Positions 4,735 to 63,983 of a stretch of DNA of 64,000 bases are shown piece by piece. The position numbers and the translations under genes were made by a program. The notes below the pieces were generated by a model. It searched no databases. It had not been told where the DNA came from and was given only the letters and a program-made list of their open reading frames with translations. Location of the stretch: assembly GCF_058153355.1 (NCBI RefSeq), contig NZ_CM177019.1; one strand, given 5' to 3'. Within the stretch, counting starts at the first letter, position 1; the number at the start of each line of letters is the position of its first letter.

Positions 4735-5616
4735 TCATTGGGAAGACTGTTTTGCTGAGTCAGGCACATCGAGCAGTTGAATAAACGCTTCAAGAGGACG
4801 CGTTTTCGCACCGCGACGCCAGACCAGCCAGGTTGTTAACCAACGCCATTGCTCAGCCAACGGCCACGCTTCAACCTGGTGATGCCCCGGCATACTTTCC
4901 AGCATTGAGCGTGGGATAAGTGCAATGCCCGCACCCGCAACCACACAGGCTAACATACCGTGATACGACTCCATTTCATGGATGGTCCCCGGCGCTGCAC
5001 CGTCGGCATGAAACCAGCTTTCAAAGTGGCGACGATATGAACAATTGGCACGGAATGCATAAATGTTACAGCCATTAACCTGACTGGCGCGGGTTACTGG
5101 TGCATGTCCTTGTGGCGTGACAATCATCAACTCCTCGCGGTAGACCGGTATTCCATCAATAGCAGTATGGTTAATGGGCCCATCAATAAATGCCGCATTC
5201 AGTTTTCCCTCCAACACACCTTCCAGCATGGTGCCGGAAGGACCGGTGGAAAGCGAAAACTGAATTTTGGGATAACGACGGTTAAACTCCGCCAGCGTGG
5301 GCGGAATGCGCACTGCTGCGGTGCTTTCCAGCGAACCAAGAGAAAATAAACCTTGCGGCTCATCGCCAGCGACAACGCTCCGCGCTTCATCCACTAACGC
5401 GAGAATTTGTTGGCTATAGCGTAAAAAGTTATGCCCGGCAGGCGAGAGACGTAAACGCTGATTCTCGCGAATAAACAGATCAACCCCCAGTTCTGTTTCC
5501 AGCTGGCGTAGACGGGTAGTGAGATTCGACGGGACGCGATGCACTTTTGCTGCAGCCTGGGTAATGCTGCCAGCTTCGGCAACCGCGTTGAACATCTCCA
5601 GTTGGGTCAGATCCAT
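4735..5616 (-). CDS. yneJ: LysR-family transcriptional regulator YneJ
   Basis: 293-aa ORF with N-terminal LysR HTH ([23 protein letters not shown]) and C-terminal substrate-binding domain; divergent from sad. Confidence 0.8.
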
Positions 5617-5716
5617 GGCATTCTCAATTCGTGAATAAGTGGCTTAATATTATTCATTTTCAAGCAAGAGTAAATCTGCGTATCTTTTTACCATAACCCA
5701 TAAAGGAGATACCCCG

Positions 5717-7105
5717 ATGACCATTACTCCGGCAACCCATGCAATTTCGATAAATCCTGCCACTGGTGAACAACTTTCTGTGCTGCCGTGGGCTGGCGCT
5801 GACGATATAGAAAACGCACTTCAGCTGGCGGCAGCAGGCTTTCGCGACTGGCGCGAGACAAATATAGATTATCGTGCTGAAAAACTGCGTGATATCGGTA
5901 AGGCTCTGCGCGCCCGTAGCGAAGAAATGGCGCAAATGATCACCCGTGAAATGGGCAAACCGATCAACCAGGCGCGTGTTGAAGTGGCGAAATCGGCGAA
6001 TTTGTGTGACTGGTATGCAGAACATGGTCCGGCGATGCTGAAGGCGGAACCTACGCTGGTGGAAAATCAGCAGGCGGTTATTGAGTATCGACCGTTGGGG
6101 ACGATTCTGGCGATTATGCCGTGGAATTTTCCGTTATGGCAGGTGATGCGTGGCGCTGTTCCCATCATACTTGCAGGTAACGGCTACTTACTTAAACATG
6201 CGCCGAATGTGATGGGCTGTGCACAGCTCATTGCCCAGGTGTTTAAAGATGCGGGGATCCCGCAAGGCGTATATGGCTGGCTGAATGCTGACAACGACGG
6301 TGTCAGTCAGATGATTAAAGACTCGCGCATTGCTGCTGTCACAGTGACCGGAAGTGTTCGTGCGGGAGCAGTTATTGGCGCACAGGCTGGAGCGGCACTG
6401 AAAAAATGTGTACTGGAACTGGGCGGTTCGGATCCGTTTATTGTGCTTAACGATGCCGATCTGGAACTTGCGGTGAAAGCGGCGGTAGTCGGACGTTATC
6501 AGAATACTGGACAGGTTTGTGCGGCGGCAAAACGCTTTATCATCGAAGAGGGAATTGCTTCGGCATTTACTGAACGTTTTGTAGCAGCTGCGGCAGCCTT
6601 GAAAATGGGCGATCCACGTGATGAAGAGAACGATCTCGGACCCATGGCTCGCTTTGATTTGCGTGATGAGCTACATCATCAGGTAGAAAAAACTCTGGCT
6701 CAAGGTGCACGTTTGTTACTGGGCGGGGAAAAGCTGGCTGGGGCAGGTAACTACTATCCGCCAACGGTTCTGTCGAATGTCACACCAGAAATGACCGCTT
6801 TTCGGGAAGAGATGTTTGGCCCCGTTGCGGCAATCACTATTGCAAAGGATGCAGAACATGCGTTGGAACTGGCTAATGATAGCGAGTTCGGCCTTTCAGC
6901 GACCATTTTCACCACCGACGAAACACGGGCCAGACAGATGGCGGCACGTCTGGAATGCGGTGGCGTGTTTATCAATGGTTACTGTGCCAGTGATGCGCGA
7001 GTCGCCTTTGGTGGCGTGAAGAAGAGTGGCTTTGGTCGTGAACTTTCCCATTTCGGTTTACATGAGTTCTGTAATATCCAGACGGTGTGGAAAGACCGGA
7101 TCTGA
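5717..7105 (+). CDS. sad: NAD-dependent succinate-semialdehyde dehydrogenase Sad (YneI)
   Basis: 462-aa aldehyde dehydrogenase with glutamate motif VLELGGSDP and catalytic cysteine motif [11 protein letters not shown]-like AAGGAG upstream. Confidence 0.85.
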
Positions 7106-7168
7106 CGCTACATATTCAGCTCTGATATACTCGCAGGTCTTTTCAGACCTGCGGTCCAGGAGTAGAAA

Positions 7169-8095
7169 GTGGCAGTCGCCATGGATAATGCAATTTTAGA
7201 AAACATCTTGCGGCAAGTGCGGCCGCTCATTGGTCAGGGTAAAGTCGCGGATTATATTCCGGCGCTGGCTACGGTAGACGGTTCCCGGCTGGGCATTGCT
7301 ATCTGTACCGTTGACGGACAGCTTTTTCAGGCCGGAGACGCACAAGAACGTTTTTCCATTCAGTCTATTTCCAAAGTGCTGAGTCTCGTTGTCGCCATGC
7401 GTCATTACTCCGAAGAGGAAATCTGGCAACGCGTCGGCAAAGATCCGTCTGGATCACCGTTCAATTCTTTAGTGCAATTGGAAATGGAGCAGGGTATTCC
7501 GCGTAATCCGTTTATTAATGCCGGTGCGCTGGTGGTCTGCGATATGTTGCAAGGGCGATTAAGCGCTCCTCGGCAACGTATGCTGGAAGTCGTGCGCGGC
7601 TTAAGCGGTGTGTCTGATATTTCCTACGATACGGTGGTAGCGCGTTCCGAATTTGAACACTCCGCGCGAAATGCGGCTATCGCCTGGCTGATGAAGTCGT
7701 TTGGCAATTTCCATCATGATGTGACAACTGTTCTGCAAAACTACTTTCATTACTGCGCTCTGAAAATGAGCTGTGTAGAGCTGGCCCGGACGTTTGTCTT
7801 TCTGGCTAATCAGGGGAAAGCTATTCATATTGATGAACCTGTGGTGACGCCAATGCAGGCGCGGCAAATTAACGCACTAATGGCGACCAGTGGTATGTAC
7901 CAGAACGCGGGGGAGTTTGCCTGGCGGGTGGGACTACCGGCAAAATCTGGCGTCGGCGGCGGTATTGTGGCGATTGTTCCGCATGAAATGGCCATCGCTG
8001 TCTGGAGTCCGGAACTGGATGATGCCGGTAACTCGCTTGCGGGCATTGCTGTCCTTGAACAATTGACGAAACAATTAGGGCGTTCGGTTTATTAA
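7169..8095 (+). CDS. glsB: Glutaminase 2 (GlsB/YneH)
   Basis: 308-aa ORF recognised as serine-dependent glutaminase (..[16 protein letters not shown]..); immediately follows sad. Confidence 0.85.
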
Positions 8096-8457
8096 TGCAG
8101 TCTCTCGATCCACTCTTCGCGCGTTTATCCCGTTCAAAATTTCGCTCTCGCTTTCGTTTGGGTGTGAAAGAGCGTCAGTATTGTCTGGAGAAAGGCGCGC
8201 CAGTCATCGAACAACATGCGGCGGATTTTGTCTCTAAACGTCTTGCTCCGGCATTACCGGCTAACGACGGTAAGCAAACCCCCATGCGCGGGCATCCGGT
8301 GTTTATCGCTCAGCACGCCACTGCAACCTGTTGTCGCGGTTGTCTGGCTAAGTGGCATAACATTCCGCAGGGTGTTTCGTTAAGCGAGGAACAACAACGT
8401 TATATCGTGTCGGTAATCTATCACTGGTTGGTTATACAGATGAATCAGCCAAGATAA
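8095..8457 (+). CDS. yneG: Small uncharacterised protein YneG
   Basis: 120-aa ORF whose ATG overlaps the glsB stop (TAATG), indicating translational coupling. Confidence 0.6.
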   Translation: MQSLDPLFARLSRSKFRSRFRLGVKERQYCLEKGAPVIEQHAADFVSKRLAPALPANDGKQTPMRGHPVFIAQHATATCCRGCLAKWHNIPQGVSLSEEQQRYIVSVIYHWLVIQMNQPR

Positions 8458-8592
8458 TTGCGGAAAACGATAAAATAGCATTCCCAGGATATCTTTATTT
8501 GCCGCCGCTGTCAGCGAACATGCTATCCTTTATGAGAATTTACTTATTACGTTGAGATAATTGCCACCCGCAATTGTATGGACAGATAATTA

Positions 8593-10011
8593 ATGCATGT
8601 ACAGCCCATTTCAACTTTCCGTTTGTTCCAGGAAGGTCATCTGCTACGTAATAGCATCGCTATTTTTGTGCTAACCACGCTGTTCTATTTTATTGGTGCA
8701 GAGTTACGGCTGGTTCACGAACTTTCTCTTTTCTGGCCGCTGAATGGCGTAATGGCAGGGGTGTTTGCCCGCTATGTCTGGCTTAATCGACTGCATTACT
8801 ATGCGATCAGTTATGTGGCAATGCTGGTTTATGATGCCATAACCACCGAATGGGGGCTGGTTTCACTGGCTATCAATTTCTCCAATATGATGTTTATTGT
8901 TACCGTCGCCTTACTGGTCGCGCGGGATAAGCGTCTGGGGAAAAATAAGTACGAGCCAGTAAGTGCCTTACGGCTATTTAATTACTGTCTGATTGCCGCA
9001 TTATTATGCGCTATTGTCGGGGCGATTGGTTCGGTCAGTATTGATAGTCTGGATTTCTGGCCTTTGCTTGCCGACTGGTTCAGTGAGCAATTCTCAACGG
9101 GCGTGTTGATCGTGCCTTGTATGCTGACGTTGGCAATTCCTGGAGTGCTGCCGCGCTTTAAAGCAGAACAGATGATGCCCGCTATCGCGCTTATTGTGTC
9201 GGTTGTTGCCTCGGTAGTCATTGGCGGAGCGGGGAGTCTGGCGTTCCCGCTGCCTGCATTAATCTGGTGTGCAGTGCGCTATACGCCGCAGGTAACATGT
9301 CTGTTGACCTTTGTCACCGGTGCGGTGGAAATCGTACTGGTGGCAAATTCGGTGATTGATATCTCGGTCGGTTCGCCGTTCTCCATTCCGCAAATGTTCT
9401 CCGCACGTCTCGGTATTGCCACGATGGCGATATGCCCAATTATGGTTTCTTTTAGCGTGGCAGCGATCAATTCGCTAATGAAGCAAGTTGCGCTGCGAGC
9501 CGACTTTGATTTTCTGACTCAGGTTTACTCACGGTCTGGTCTTTATGAGGCGCTGAAAAGTCCATCGCTGAAACAGACACAACATCTGACTGTCATGCTG
9601 CTTGATATCGACTATTTCAAAAGCATTAACGATAACTATGGACATGAATGTGGCGATAAAGTGTTAAGCGTGTTTGCCCAGCATATTCAGAAGATTGTCG
9701 GTGATAAGGGGCTGGTGGCGCGAATGGGCGGCGAAGAATTTGCTGTTGCAGTGTCATCGGTGAATCCTGTCGATGGTCTGCTAATGGCGGAAAAAATCCG
9801 TAAAGGCGTTGAACTGCAACCGTTCACCTGGCAACAAAAAACGCTTTATCTCACGGTAAGTATTGGCGTCGGTAGTGGTTGCGCATCGTACCGAACGCTG
9901 ACCGATGACTTTAATAAATTGATGGTCGAAGCCGATACATGTCTGTATCGCTCGAAGAAAGATGGGCGCAACCGTACCAGCACTATGCGTTACGGTGAGG
10001 AAGTTGTCTGA
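8593..10011 (+). CDS. dgcF: Membrane-anchored GGDEF diguanylate cyclase (DgcF/YneF)
   Basis: 472-aa ORF with hydrophobic N-terminal half (multiple TM segments) and C-terminal GGDEF domain with active-site motif RMGGEEFAV. Confidence 0.7.
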   Translation: MHVQPISTFRLFQEGHLLRNSIAIFVLTTLFYFIGAELRLVHELSLFWPLNGVMAGVFARYVWLNRLHYYAISYVAMLVYDAITTEWGLVSLAINFSNMMFIVTVALLVARDKRLGKNKYEPVSALRLFNYCLIAALLCAIVGAIGSVSIDSLDFWPLLADWFSEQFSTGVLIVPCMLTLAIPGVLPRFKAEQMMPAIALIVSVVASVVIGGAGSLAFPLPALIWCAVRYTPQVTCLLTFVTGAVEIVLVANSVIDISVGSPFSIPQMFSARLGIATMAICPIMVSFSVAAINSLMKQVALRADFDFLTQVYSRSGLYEALKSPSLKQTQHLTVMLLDIDYFKSINDNYGHECGDKVLSVFAQHIQKIVGDKGLVARMGGEEFAVAVSSVNPVDGLLMAEKIRKGVELQPFTWQQKTLYLTVSIGVGSGCASYRTLTDDFNKLMVEADTCLYRSKKDGRNRTSTMRYGEEVV

Positions 10012-10237
10012 CATCTTTATTCATTCAGAGCGTTTTAAATGCAATGTGTTCTACCACTTTATGTTCCAAGAAAAGGCGTATTTCCTCGATTAAACCATGA
10101 TCCGCGCCACACTTTTCTCATAAAACTGCTCATTAATCATCAGGAGTTGATCAAAACAGGGGTTCGGCGTATTAAAGTTTGCTAATCTGTCGTACCAATT
10201 CAAACAGGTTGTATGACTAATCAGAAGGGAACCCATT

Positions 10238-11689
10238 GTGAAAACACTAAATCGTCGCGATTTTCCCGGTGCACAGTATCCAGAACGTATCATTCAGTTT
10301 GGTGAAGGTAACTTCCTGCGCGCCTTTGTTGACTGGCAAATCGATCTCCTGAATGAGCACACCGATCTGAATTCTGGCGTGGTCGTTGTTCGTCCGATTG
10401 AAACTTCATTCCCGCCGTCATTGAGCACGCAGGATGGTCTGTACACCACCATTATCCGTGGTTTGAATGAGAAGGGGGAGGCGGTCAGCGACGCGCGTCT
10501 GATTCGCTCGGTTAATCGTGAAATCAGCGTCTACAGTGAATACGATGAATTCCTGAAACTGGCGCACAACCCGGAAATGCGCTTTGTTTTCTCTAACACC
10601 ACCGAAGCGGGTATCAGCTACCATGCGGGCGATAAATTCGATGACGCGCCAGCGGTAAGTTATCCGGCAAAACTGACCCGTCTGCTGTTCGAACGTTTTA
10701 GCCATTTCAACGGAGCGCAGGATAAAGGTTGGATCATCATCCCATGTGAACTGATCGACTATAACGGCGATGCACTGCGTGAACTGGTGCTGCGCTACGC
10801 GCAAGAGTGGGCACTACCAGAAGCATTTATTCAATGGCTGGATCAGGCTAACAGTTTCTGTTCTACGCTGGTGGACCGTATCGTTACCGGTTATCCGCGT
10901 GATGAAGTGGCTAAACTGGAAGAAGAACTGGGTTATCACGATGGTTTCCTCGACACCGCTGAACACTTTTACCTGTTTGTGATTCAGGGGCCGAAATCCT
11001 TAGCGACTGAGCTGCGTCTGGACAAATATCCGCTCAACGTGCTGATTGTTGACGATATTAAACCGTATAAAGAGCGCAAAGTGGCAATCCTCAACGGTGC
11101 ACACACGGCGCTGGTGCCGGTGGCGTTCCAGGCAGGGCTGGATACTGTAGGTGAAGCGATGAACGATGCTGAAATTTGTGCATTCGTTGAAAAAGCCATC
11201 TACGAAGAGATTATTCCGGTACTGGATTTGCCTCGTGATGAACTGGAATCTTTCGCCAGTGCAGTCACCGGACGTTTCCGTAATCCGTACATCAAGCATC
11301 AGCTGCTGTCTATCGCGCTTAACGGTATGACCAAGTTCCGCACCCGTATCCTGCCGCAGCTGCTGGCAGGGCAGAAGGCAAACGGCACACTTCCGGCGCG
11401 CCTTACTTTCGCATTAGCGGCATTGATTGCGTTTTATCGCGGTGAGCGTAACGGAGAAACATATCCGGTACAGGACGATGCCCACTGGCTGGAACGTTAT
11501 CAGCAACTCTGGAGCCAGCATCGTGACCGTGTTATCGGCACCCAGGAACTGGTTGCTATTGTGTTGGCTGAAAAAGATCACTGGGAGCAGGACCTGACGC
11601 AAGTGCCTGGTCTGGTCGAGCTGGTTGCTAATGACCTGGATGCGATTCTCGAAAAAGGAATGCGCGAAGCTGTACGTCCGTTGTGCTAA
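10238..11689 (+). CDS. uxaB: Altronate oxidoreductase (tagaturonate reductase) UxaB
   Basis: 483-aa ORF with GTG start, recognised as UxaB of the mannitol dehydrogenase family ([30 protein letters not shown]..). Confidence 0.85.
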
Positions 11690-11885: not shown

Positions 11886-12800
11886 ATGATCGTTCGTCCA
11901 CAACAACACTGGCTGCGCCGTATTTTTGTCTGGCACGGTTCAGTATTATCCAAGATATCCTCACGCTTACTACTTAATTTTCTCTTTTCTACTGCCGTTA
12001 TTTTCATGCTGCCCTGGTACACGCATCTGGGTATTAAATTTACCCTCGCACCATTCAGCATTCTCGGTGTCGCCATCGCCATTTTTCTTGGTTTTCGTAA
12101 TAATGCCGGGTACGCCCGTTACGTTGAAGCGCGAAAACTTTGGGGGCAGTTGATGATTGCCTCACGGTCGTTACTGCGCGAGGTAAAAACGACATTGCCG
12201 GATTCGGCAAGTGTAAGGGAGTTTGCACGGCTGCAAATCGCCTTCGCCCACTGTTTACGCATGACATTACGCAAACAACCACAGGCGGAAGTGCTGGCAC
12301 ATTATCTCAAGACTGAAGATCTTCAGCGTGTACTGGCTTCAAACACTCCAGCTAACCGTATTTTGTTGATAATGGGGGAGTGGTTGGCGGTTCAGCGACG
12401 CAATGGACAGCTTTCAGATATCCTGTTTATTAGCCTCAACGATCGGCTTAACGATATTTCAGCGGTTCTGGCAGGCTGCGAGCGCATTGCCTACACGCCA
12501 ATTCCCTTTGCCTACACCCTGATTTTGCATCGTACCGTTTATCTGTTTTGTATCATGCTGCCGTTCGCGCTGGTCGTGGACCTGCATTACATGACGCCAT
12601 TTATCTCTGTGCTGATTTCCTACACTTTTATTTCGCTGGATTGTCTGGCGGAAGAGCTGGAAGATCCGTTCGGTACTGAAAACAATGATTTACCGCTGGA
12701 TGCCATCTGCAACGCTATTGAAATTGACCTGTTACAGATGAACGATGAAACAGAAATTCCAGCAAAAATTCTTCCCGATCGTCATTACCAGCTGACGTAA
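11886..12800 (+). CDS. yneE: Bestrophin-like membrane protein YneE
   Basis: 304 aa from ATG 11886 (MIVRPQQHWLRRIFVWHGSVLSKI..) with four predicted TM helices; the longer six-frame ORF from 11835 is an upstream extension. Confidence 0.75.
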   Translation: MIVRPQQHWLRRIFVWHGSVLSKISSRLLLNFLFSTAVIFMLPWYTHLGIKFTLAPFSILGVAIAIFLGFRNNAGYARYVEARKLWGQLMIASRSLLREVKTTLPDSASVREFARLQIAFAHCLRMTLRKQPQAEVLAHYLKTEDLQRVLASNTPANRILLIMGEWLAVQRRNGQLSDILFISLNDRLNDISAVLAGCERIAYTPIPFAYTLILHRTVYLFCIMLPFALVVDLHYMTPFISVLISYTFISLDCLAEELEDPFGTENNDLPLDAICNAIEIDLLQMNDETEIPAKILPDRHYQLT

Positions 12801-62576: not shown

Positions 62577-63959
62577 ATGGAGATGTATTTTAAAAGAATG
62601 AAAGATGAGTGGACCGGACTTGTCGAACAGACAGATCCGCTCATTCGTGCCAAAGCCGCGGAAATTGCCGTTGCGCATGCCCATTACCTGAGCATTGAGT
62701 TTTATCGGATTGTCCGTATTGACCCGCATGCCGAAGAATTCTTGAGTAATGAACAAGTTGAGCGGCAGCTGAAAAGTGCGATGGAACGCTGGATTATTAA
62801 TGTGCTTTCTGCCCAGGTTGACGATGTTGAAAGGCTAATACAAATCCAGCATACCGTCGCAGAAGTGCATGCCCGCATCGGCATTCCAGTAGAAATTGTC
62901 GAGATGGGGTTTCGGGTGCTGAAAAAAATCCTCTATCCGGTGATTTTCTCTTCGGATTATTCTGCCGCAGAAAAACTTCAGGTCTACCATTTCTCAATTA
63001 ACAGTATTGATATCGCGATGGAAGTCATGACCCGCGCGTTTACCTTTAGTGACAGTAGTGCCTCAAAAGAAGATGAAAACTATCGTATCTTCTCGTTACT
63101 GGAAAACGCCGAAGAAGAAAAAGAACGGCAAATAGCCTCAATCCTTTCATGGGAAATTGACATTATCTATAAAGTTCTGCTGGATTCTGATTTAGGCAGT
63201 AGTTTGCCTTTAAGCCAGGCTGATTTTGGCCTGTGGTTTAACCATAAAGGTCGACATTATTTTAGCGGCATTGCCGAAGTGGGTCATATCTCCCGCCTGA
63301 TTCAGGATTTCGACGGTATTTTTAATCAAACCATACGTAATACAAAAAATTTGAGCAACAAAACTCTGCGGGTGAGATTTTTATTACAGGTAAGAAATAC
63401 CGTATCGCAAATTATTACCTTGCTGCGTGAATTATTTGAAGAAGTATCTCGCCACGAAGTGGGTATGGATGTACTGACAAAATTACTTAACCGCCGCTTC
63501 CTGCCGACCATCTTTAAACGCGAAATTGCCCATGCCAACCGGACCGGAACCCCCCTGTCAGTGCTGATTATTGACGTTGATAAATTCAAAGAGATCAACG
63601 ATACGTGGGGCCATAACACTGGCGATGAAATTCTGCGTAAAGTTTCTCAGGCCTTTTATGACAACGTCCGCAGTAGTGATTATGTTTTTCGTTACGGGGG
63701 AGATGAATTTATCATTGTCCTGACTGAAGCTTCTGAAAACGAAACGTTACGTACCGCAGAACGTATTCGCAGTCGGGTGGAGAAAACCAAACTGAAAGCC
63801 GCAAACGGCGAAGATATTGCCCTCTCACTTTCCATCGGTGCCGCCATGTTTAATGGTCATCCTGACTATGAGCGCCTCATTCAAATAGCCGATGAAGCTC
63901 TGTATATCGCCAAAAGACGAGGTAGAAACCGTGTTGAACTCTGGAAAGCCAGTCTTTAG
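62577..63959 (+). CDS. dosC: DosC, globin-coupled oxygen-sensing diguanylate cyclase
   Basis: 460-aa ORF with N-terminal globin sensor domain and C-terminal GGDEF domain (active site RYGGDEF). Confidence 0.85.
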   Translation: MEMYFKRMKDEWTGLVEQTDPLIRAKAAEIAVAHAHYLSIEFYRIVRIDPHAEEFLSNEQVERQLKSAMERWIINVLSAQVDDVERLIQIQHTVAEVHARIGIPVEIVEMGFRVLKKILYPVIFSSDYSAAEKLQVYHFSINSIDIAMEVMTRAFTFSDSSASKEDENYRIFSLLENAEEEKERQIASILSWEIDIIYKVLLDSDLGSSLPLSQADFGLWFNHKGRHYFSGIAEVGHISRLIQDFDGIFNQTIRNTKNLSNKTLRVRFLLQVRNTVSQIITLLRELFEEVSRHEVGMDVLTKLLNRRFLPTIFKREIAHANRTGTPLSVLIIDVDKFKEINDTWGHNTGDEILRKVSQAFYDNVRSSDYVFRYGGDEFIIVLTEASENETLRTAERIRSRVEKTKLKAANGEDIALSLSIGAAMFNGHPDYERLIQIADEALYIAKRRGRNRVELWKASL

Positions 63960-63983
63960 ATGCGCCAGGATGCAGAGGTAATC

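Follow-up and report, generated by a model that had tools for sequence, protein, structure and literature searches.

The 64,000-nucleotide stretch of DNA analysed here (the window) carries a complete dgcF (yneF) gene located between yneG, which codes for a DUF4186 protein, and uxaB; together with glsB, these flanking genes identify the locus as dgcF (yneF) of E. coli (Table 1). The reading frame starts with the ATG at 8593 and its translation yields a product of 472 amino acids, which is also the length annotated by RefSeq and the one that the initial annotation had claimed for 8593-10011 on the forward strand. An in-frame TAA (8587-8589) lies two codons 5′ of this ATG and codons 2 to 9 of dgcF contain no alternative start codon, so that the ATG at 8593 is the first possible start. 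The identical 1419-bp coding sequence is present in the closest genome, in which PGAP/RefSeq calls the product (WP_123059885.1) a "sensor domain-containing diguanylate cyclase", and the window protein shares 98% identity over its full length with the P0009 cluster (9487 E. coli sequences, 472 amino acids). At the nucleotide level, most of 5416 E. coli records are 97-98% identical to the region from 8400 to 10100, no more than 31 of them reaching 99% or above; the record that matches best comes from a dog isolate. The window therefore represents a less commonly sequenced lineage or carries a divergent allele. Five matches to the same region are found on plasmid-typed records.

Table 1. Coordinates of features at the dgcF locus (positions in the window).
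Feature	Position	Strand	Basis
Promoter-like site ATGAGA-18-(TG)GATAAT	8532..8561	+	Consensus scan, upstream alignment; function inferred
Inverted repeat ATAATTGC-N5-GCAATTGT	8557..8577	+	Sequence and four-species alignment
Weak Shine-Dalgarno-like GGA	8580-8582	+	Within conserved "ATGGA"
In-frame TAA stop bounding the ORF	8587-8589	+	Sequence, alignment
dgcF (yneF) CDS, 472 amino acids and stop	8593..10011	+	ORF list, RefSeq annotation, 98% identity to P0009
498-bp segment absent from K-12	8528..9025	+	65 bp upstream, codons 1-144, first base of codon 145
TTG (Leu158), annotated start of the K-12 remnant	9064..9066	+	b1522 translation begins LLADWF
N-terminal integral-membrane domain, residues 1-300, ten predicted helices, putative divergent MASE1 type	8593..9492	+	
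Helix 10, residues 265-304, last predicted membrane helix	9385..9504	+	Residues 265-304 in the full model, 265-301 in the domain model
GGDEF catalytic domain, residues 303-461	9499..9975	+	Pfam PF00990, E 1.2e-40
GGEEF active-site motif, residues 379-383	9727..9741	+	Sequence; motif columns invariant in orthologs
Chimeric ORFs of other E. coli	8593-9819 joined to 12303-12797, 26608-26799 or 7169-8092		Proteins P0058, P0002, P0004, P0124, P0122

The initial annotation had also mentioned shorter annotations of YneF, of about 315 residues. Comparison of the annotated start in reference genomes accounts for both lengths, as the protein has 472 amino acids in the closest RefSeq genome and 315 in K-12 MG1655, where b1522 (948 bp) agrees with the shorter figure. 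BLAST alignment of the window with MG1655 revealed that the blocks 7001-8527 and 9026-11000 adjoin in K-12, and the K-12 b1522 protein corresponds to the window protein from residue 158 onward. These residues (158-472) are collinear and near-identical between the two proteins; they comprise the complete GGDEF domain and, ahead of it, the final ~140 residues of the membrane domain. The window gene is complete, whereas its K-12 counterpart lacks 8528-9025, is annotated from a TTG and is silent on the chromosome (PMC4287979, PMC5635695). PGAP labels K-12-like alleles "incomplete; missing N-terminus" and calls them pseudogenes. The 315-residue K-12 "DgcF" is the remnant of a 498-bp deletion that took away codons 1-144 together with the promoter region. 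The mismatch between 472 and 315 amino acids does not reflect two alternative starts on one gene. This relationship between the two forms is already known: it was published in 2014, and RefSeq annotation takes it into account. Richter et al. 2014 (PMC4287979) described the extended yneF of pathogenic strains and attributed the 5′ truncation of K-12 yneF to a deletion, which led to misannotation of the start codon and explains why the gene is not expressed in W3110. The deletion was described again by Sarenko et al. 2017 (PMC5635695), who worked with the allele of 55989.

The dgcF locus was found in 5414 of 5426 complete E. coli genomes and the 498-bp segment in 4196 of the 5426, which means that ~77% carry the long form. 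The segment is missing from ~22% of complete genomes, K-12 included; the corresponding figure of ~1,200 deleted genomes is an estimate derived from the counts of the locus and of the 498-bp segment. A 78-nt junction query was non-discriminating because its two halves are joined in full-length genomes too. All six sampled two-piece matches (71% of the query) cover 1,203 bases, the length expected for the allele with the 498-bp deletion. Rare chimeric ORFs were also encountered in E. coli (Table 1), some with the N-terminus of DgcF fused to either YneE/bestrophin or the C-terminal end of HipA, others with GlsB fused to DgcF residues 83-472. These chimeric ORFs point to several independent deletions at the dgcF locus besides that of K-12. 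In one further genome match (H30), the 5′ part of dgcF is joined to tam.

Orthologs of dgcF in E. fergusonii, Citrobacter, Enterobacter and Lelliottia code for proteins of 472-483 amino acids that begin with the same Met1. All four genera conserve Met1 as well as residues 9-300, and variation is confined to the first eight residues. Comparisons with E. fergusonii, Citrobacter and Enterobacter gave dN/dS values of 0.055, 0.12 and 0.067 for codons 1-144, similarly low to the 0.06-0.09 obtained for the GGDEF part, with synonymous sites saturated. The membrane domain as a whole is conserved at least as well as the catalytic domain (dN/dS 0.035-0.12, under the same saturation). The gene order sad-glsB-yneG-dgcF-uxaB is common to E. 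coli, E. fergusonii and Citrobacter, and it is kept in Enterobacter (locus L008), where two additional genes separate dgcF from uxaB. The Enterobacter locus also carries a methyl-accepting chemotaxis (MCP) gene between sad and glsB (953-2542 of L008) and an extra GAF-GGDEF gene directly after the dgcF ortholog (5560-6525).

Judged from these sequence comparisons, the 472-residue long form is the functional, ancestral dgcF. The initial annotation had set against its own reading a scenario in which only an internal Met is used and a soluble GGDEF protein is left, the upstream 300 codons remaining untranslated. A shorter annotated ORF does exist in K-12, and GGDEF-containing fragments produced from interrupted DGC genes were reported in a Shigella study (PMC11327459). 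However, the K-12 ORF is the TTG-annotated remnant of a deletion and is not detectably expressed (PMC4287979, PMC5635695), and no Shine-Dalgarno sequence was seen ahead of Met296. The shared Met1 in four genera and the strong purifying selection on the 5′ 144 codons leave this scenario without support and contradict it; we regard a shorter soluble product as extremely improbable.

The region upstream of the long form offers candidate regulatory elements. The block containing the promoter-like site (8532-8561) is conserved in Escherichia and Citrobacter and lies within the segment deleted from K-12. Also within this segment, the inverted repeat at 8557-8577 overlaps the promoter-like −10 element and is located ~20-35 nt before the dgcF start. 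In the four-species alignment its arms are conserved and its spacer varies (E. fergusonii, C. amalonaticus); the repeat could be an operator or a 5′-UTR hairpin. Expression of yneF has been reported to be weak and mainly RpoS-dependent (PMC4287979).

The match of the C-terminal part of the protein to PF00990 is full-length and above the curated cut-off. The position of the RxxD motif (residues 370-373) reads GDKG, which makes DgcF a cyclase without an I-site. These features agree with the published description of full YneF, which possesses a highly hydrophobic N-terminal domain of ~300 residues and an intact A-site and is devoid of an I-site (PMC4287979). The GGDEF domain is thus predicted to be catalytically intact. 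Activity in vivo has been reported for Shigella DgcF, which increases c-di-GMP, an effect that is lost in its GG→AA mutant (PMC11327459). Near the end of the window, at 63555-63983, tblastn detected another stretch of GGDEF-like coding sequence, with 32% identity to the DgcF catalytic domain.

The N-terminal part of the protein differs sharply in composition, with a GRAVY of +0.99 for residues 1-300 versus −0.23 for the remainder (residues 301-472). Seven strong hydrophobic segments were delineated in residues 1-300 by a Kyte-Doolittle scan, and AlphaFold2 (83 homologs, mean pLDDT of 92.6) predicted ten membrane helices spanning residues 17-37, 49-60, 67-84, 89-111, 122-147, 155-179, 191-217, 219-229, 232-251 and 265-304. 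In this model helix 10 leaves the membrane on the cytoplasmic side and extends unbroken as far as the GGDEF domain. The predicted loops hold eight lysine and arginine residues on the cytoplasmic side and one on the opposite side, a distribution that fits a modelled topology in which the N- and C-termini of DgcF are both cytoplasmic. The multi-pass membrane region of ~300 residues noticed initially is thus borne out, and the reading of the long form as a membrane-integrated GGDEF cyclase is likewise supported. Several polar or charged residues of the membrane domain are near-invariant (R39, N51, D81, N98, W162, S270 and R272) and, according to the predicted topology, sit in the half of the bilayer that faces the periplasm; polar residues within the bilayer are kept across relatives of ~25-30% identity. 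A Foldseek search of the PDB with the domain model returned no match below an E-value of 0.5, leaving the ten-helix domain as a whole without a counterpart among solved structures. An internal duplication of the membrane domain, suspected from FWPxNG...ARY and FPLPALIWCAVRY, was rejected, as hhalign gave a probability below 1% for the N-terminal half versus the C-terminal half.

We then considered the family to which the membrane domain belongs. With a threshold as permissive as E≤1, Pfam found nothing in the window protein outside GGDEF, and MASE1 (PF05231) gave no match at its gathering score. An exhaustive search with residues 1-300 retrieved 407 cluster representatives at E≤1e-3, most of them 460-490 amino acids long. 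GGDEF was present in 80 of the 83 sampled family members (E≤0.001) and HisKA-HATPase-REC(-Hpt) in two of the 83. The proteins P0187 and P0260 bear the DgcF-type membrane domain on hybrid histidine-kinase modules with no GGDEF, and these fusions show that it is a portable, reusable input module. MASE1 matches were obtained for 63 of the 83 family members at E≤1 and for 44 of the 83 at E≤1e-3, the best reaching 3.2e-11. One relative, P0262, scores 34.4 bits against MASE1 (cut-off of 29.8) over positions 4-297 of the 299 of the model; it is precomputed as MASE1+GGDEF and matches the window membrane domain with an E-value of 9.8e-15. Alignment of the family profile with the MASE1 domain of DgcE by hhalign gave a probability of 92-93% over ~220 columns in the same order (DgcE residues 15-249). 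The family HMM retrieved DgcE with an E-value of 1.9e-8 when scaled to a proteome of 4300, the other ORFs of the test set, membrane proteins included, staying above 0.3. Of the E. coli MASE1 domains, the DgcF family profile detected that of DgcE alone. The MASE1 domains of UhpB, PdeA and PdeF each gave a probability below 1% with this profile, a weak test because the targets were single sequences.

We read the N-terminal domain of DgcF as a putative divergent branch of MASE1 that is beyond the reach of the Pfam model in E. coli. The matches could instead reflect nothing but hydrophobic composition, given that the window protein has no Pfam MASE1 match, that most family members score under the gathering cut-off, and that UhpB, PdeA and PdeF produce zero signal with the family profile. 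Composition alone is an improbable explanation, however, for matches that are collinear over ~220-290 positions of the 299-position model, for a relative that exceeds the curated cut-off (P0262), and for a DgcE signal (92-93% with hhalign, E 1.9e-8 with hmmsearch) that other membrane ORFs (E>0.3) do not approach. One correction applies to the "uncharacterised sensing domain" of the initial annotation: as a divergent MASE1 member it is not an orphan. This assignment, with a possible S-component-like core, is a modest advance and the only new element of the present analysis.

A 2024 study showed that PyrS and BtsS have the S-component fold in common in their 5TMR-LYT sensor domains, and a "transporter-derived receptor" class has recently been proposed for 5TMR-LYT sensors (PMC11109136). 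MASE1 is not mentioned in the text of that study or in its searchable supplementary files. We tentatively propose that the DgcF domain, and perhaps MASE1 domains generally, might contain an S-component-like six-helix bundle with a conserved, periplasm-facing polar pocket, acting as an intramembrane sensor of a small molecule or ion; we hold this to be possible rather than probable. If true, the large and poorly understood MASE1 family would join the "transporter-derived receptor" class of 5TMR-LYT sensors. Compared with the ECF S-components RibU, FolT, ThiT, BioY and BtuM, the DgcF domain has four extra helices, is not accompanied by an ECF module and bears no sign of transport. A direct link to 5TMR-LYT (PF07694) at the sequence level, hinted at by the NCBIfam GdpS model aligning from residue 186, proved unsupported: hhalign with PyrS residues 1-210 gave a probability of 0.1% and Pfam returned no 5TMR-LYT match. 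The DgcF domain thus differs from the 5TMR-LYT domains (PyrS/YpdA, BtsS, GdpS) in having no sequence similarity to the PyrS domain and no Foldseek support.

Taking these observations together, we consider it highly probable that the window carries an intact ancestral dgcF coding for an inner-membrane cyclase with a divergent MASE1 domain, which would signal through helix 10, probably in response to a small ligand or an ion, its output being limited by expression. GGDEF catalysis requires two GTP-loaded domains, and DgcF would for this reason work as a dimer. The membrane domain would set the alignment of the two helix-10 stalks, and hence that of the two catalytic domains. The input would most likely be a small molecule or an ion bound in the polar cluster formed by R39, W48-P49-x-N51, D81, N98, W162, S270 and R272, which would be compatible with an S-component-like fold of part of the membrane domain. 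Since DgcF has no I-site, its output would not be limited by product inhibition, and would rather be capped by weak, RpoS-dependent expression.

Two other accounts of the membrane domain deserve attention, both of which draw on DgcE. In the first, the domain senses nothing; it only anchors and dimerises DgcF in the inner membrane, perhaps marking it for proteolysis, and output is set by transcription alone. This account is consistent with the membrane localisation and rapid proteolysis conferred by the MASE1 domain of DgcE (PMC6510439), and with the c-di-GMP still made by the over-expressed truncated K-12 remnant (PMC11757272). We nevertheless consider it unlikely, because three features would be surprising in a simple anchor: a conservation that equals or exceeds that of the catalytic domain (dN/dS 0.035-0.12), near-invariant polar and charged residues within the bilayer across relatives of ~25-30% identity, and reuse on histidine kinases.

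In the second, which is the main alternative to a small-molecule input, a partner protein would dock on the MASE1-type domain of DgcF in the way that the GTPase RdcA docks on DgcE. RdcA interacts directly with the MASE1 domain of DgcE and docking has been proposed as a general role of MASE1 (PMC6510439); DgcE is, moreover, the sole E. coli MASE1 domain found by the DgcF family profile. Against docking, the conserved residues of DgcF are in the periplasm-facing half of the membrane and not at the cytoplasmic face, and the neighbourhoods of three distant homologs are unrelated and hold no conserved partner gene. The glsB-yneG neighbourhood itself is confined to close enterobacterial relatives. 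We rate docking as unlikely and retain the small molecule or ion as the preferred input. A functional module formed by glsB, yneG and dgcF was likewise rejected, as their linkage amounts to lineage synteny and the neighbourhoods of the three distant homologs are unrelated. Since the distant homologs have no neighbour gene in common, the genomic context is uninformative about the signal.

These findings indicate that K-12 is not representative for dgcF, as the DgcF encoded in about three-quarters of complete E. coli genomes is full-length and membrane-bound. The 315-residue K-12 remnant is still cloned as "DgcF" in some recent studies (PMC11757272). The classification as a MASE1 domain, with a possible S-component-like core, provides residues to mutate and a hypothesis on the input, namely a small intramembrane ligand. 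The enzyme concerned affects acid resistance, invasion, adherence and biofilm formation in Shigella and uropathogenic E. coli. Shigella DgcF affects acid resistance, invasion and plaque size (PMC11327459), and yneF mutants of CFT073 lose adherence and biofilm formation in glycerol medium, a defect rescued by the exogenous cyclase WspR (PMC3484386).

Among known systems, a close counterpart of the DgcF membrane domain is the MASE1 domain of DgcE, likewise an N-terminal membrane domain of ~300 residues with about ten helices, of a type found on c-di-GMP enzymes and histidine kinases; the helices of DgcF share with MASE1 a richness in conserved glycine and proline. DgcF differs from DgcE in that its domain is below Pfam detection and is joined directly to GGDEF without PAS domains. 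According to Pfiffer et al. 2019 (PMC6510439), the only E. coli c-di-GMP enzymes with MASE1 are DgcE, PdeA and PdeF, a list from which DgcF is absent. The full-size YneF/DgcF proteins of EAEC O104:H4/55989, EHEC O157:H7, UPEC CFT073 and Shigella flexneri are encoded by the same gene and belong to the 472-residue class. They have the same ~300-residue hydrophobic N-terminus followed by a GGDEF domain with GGEEF, no I-site and the same position between yneG and uxaB, and the DgcF of the window is distinguished from them by allelic differences only.
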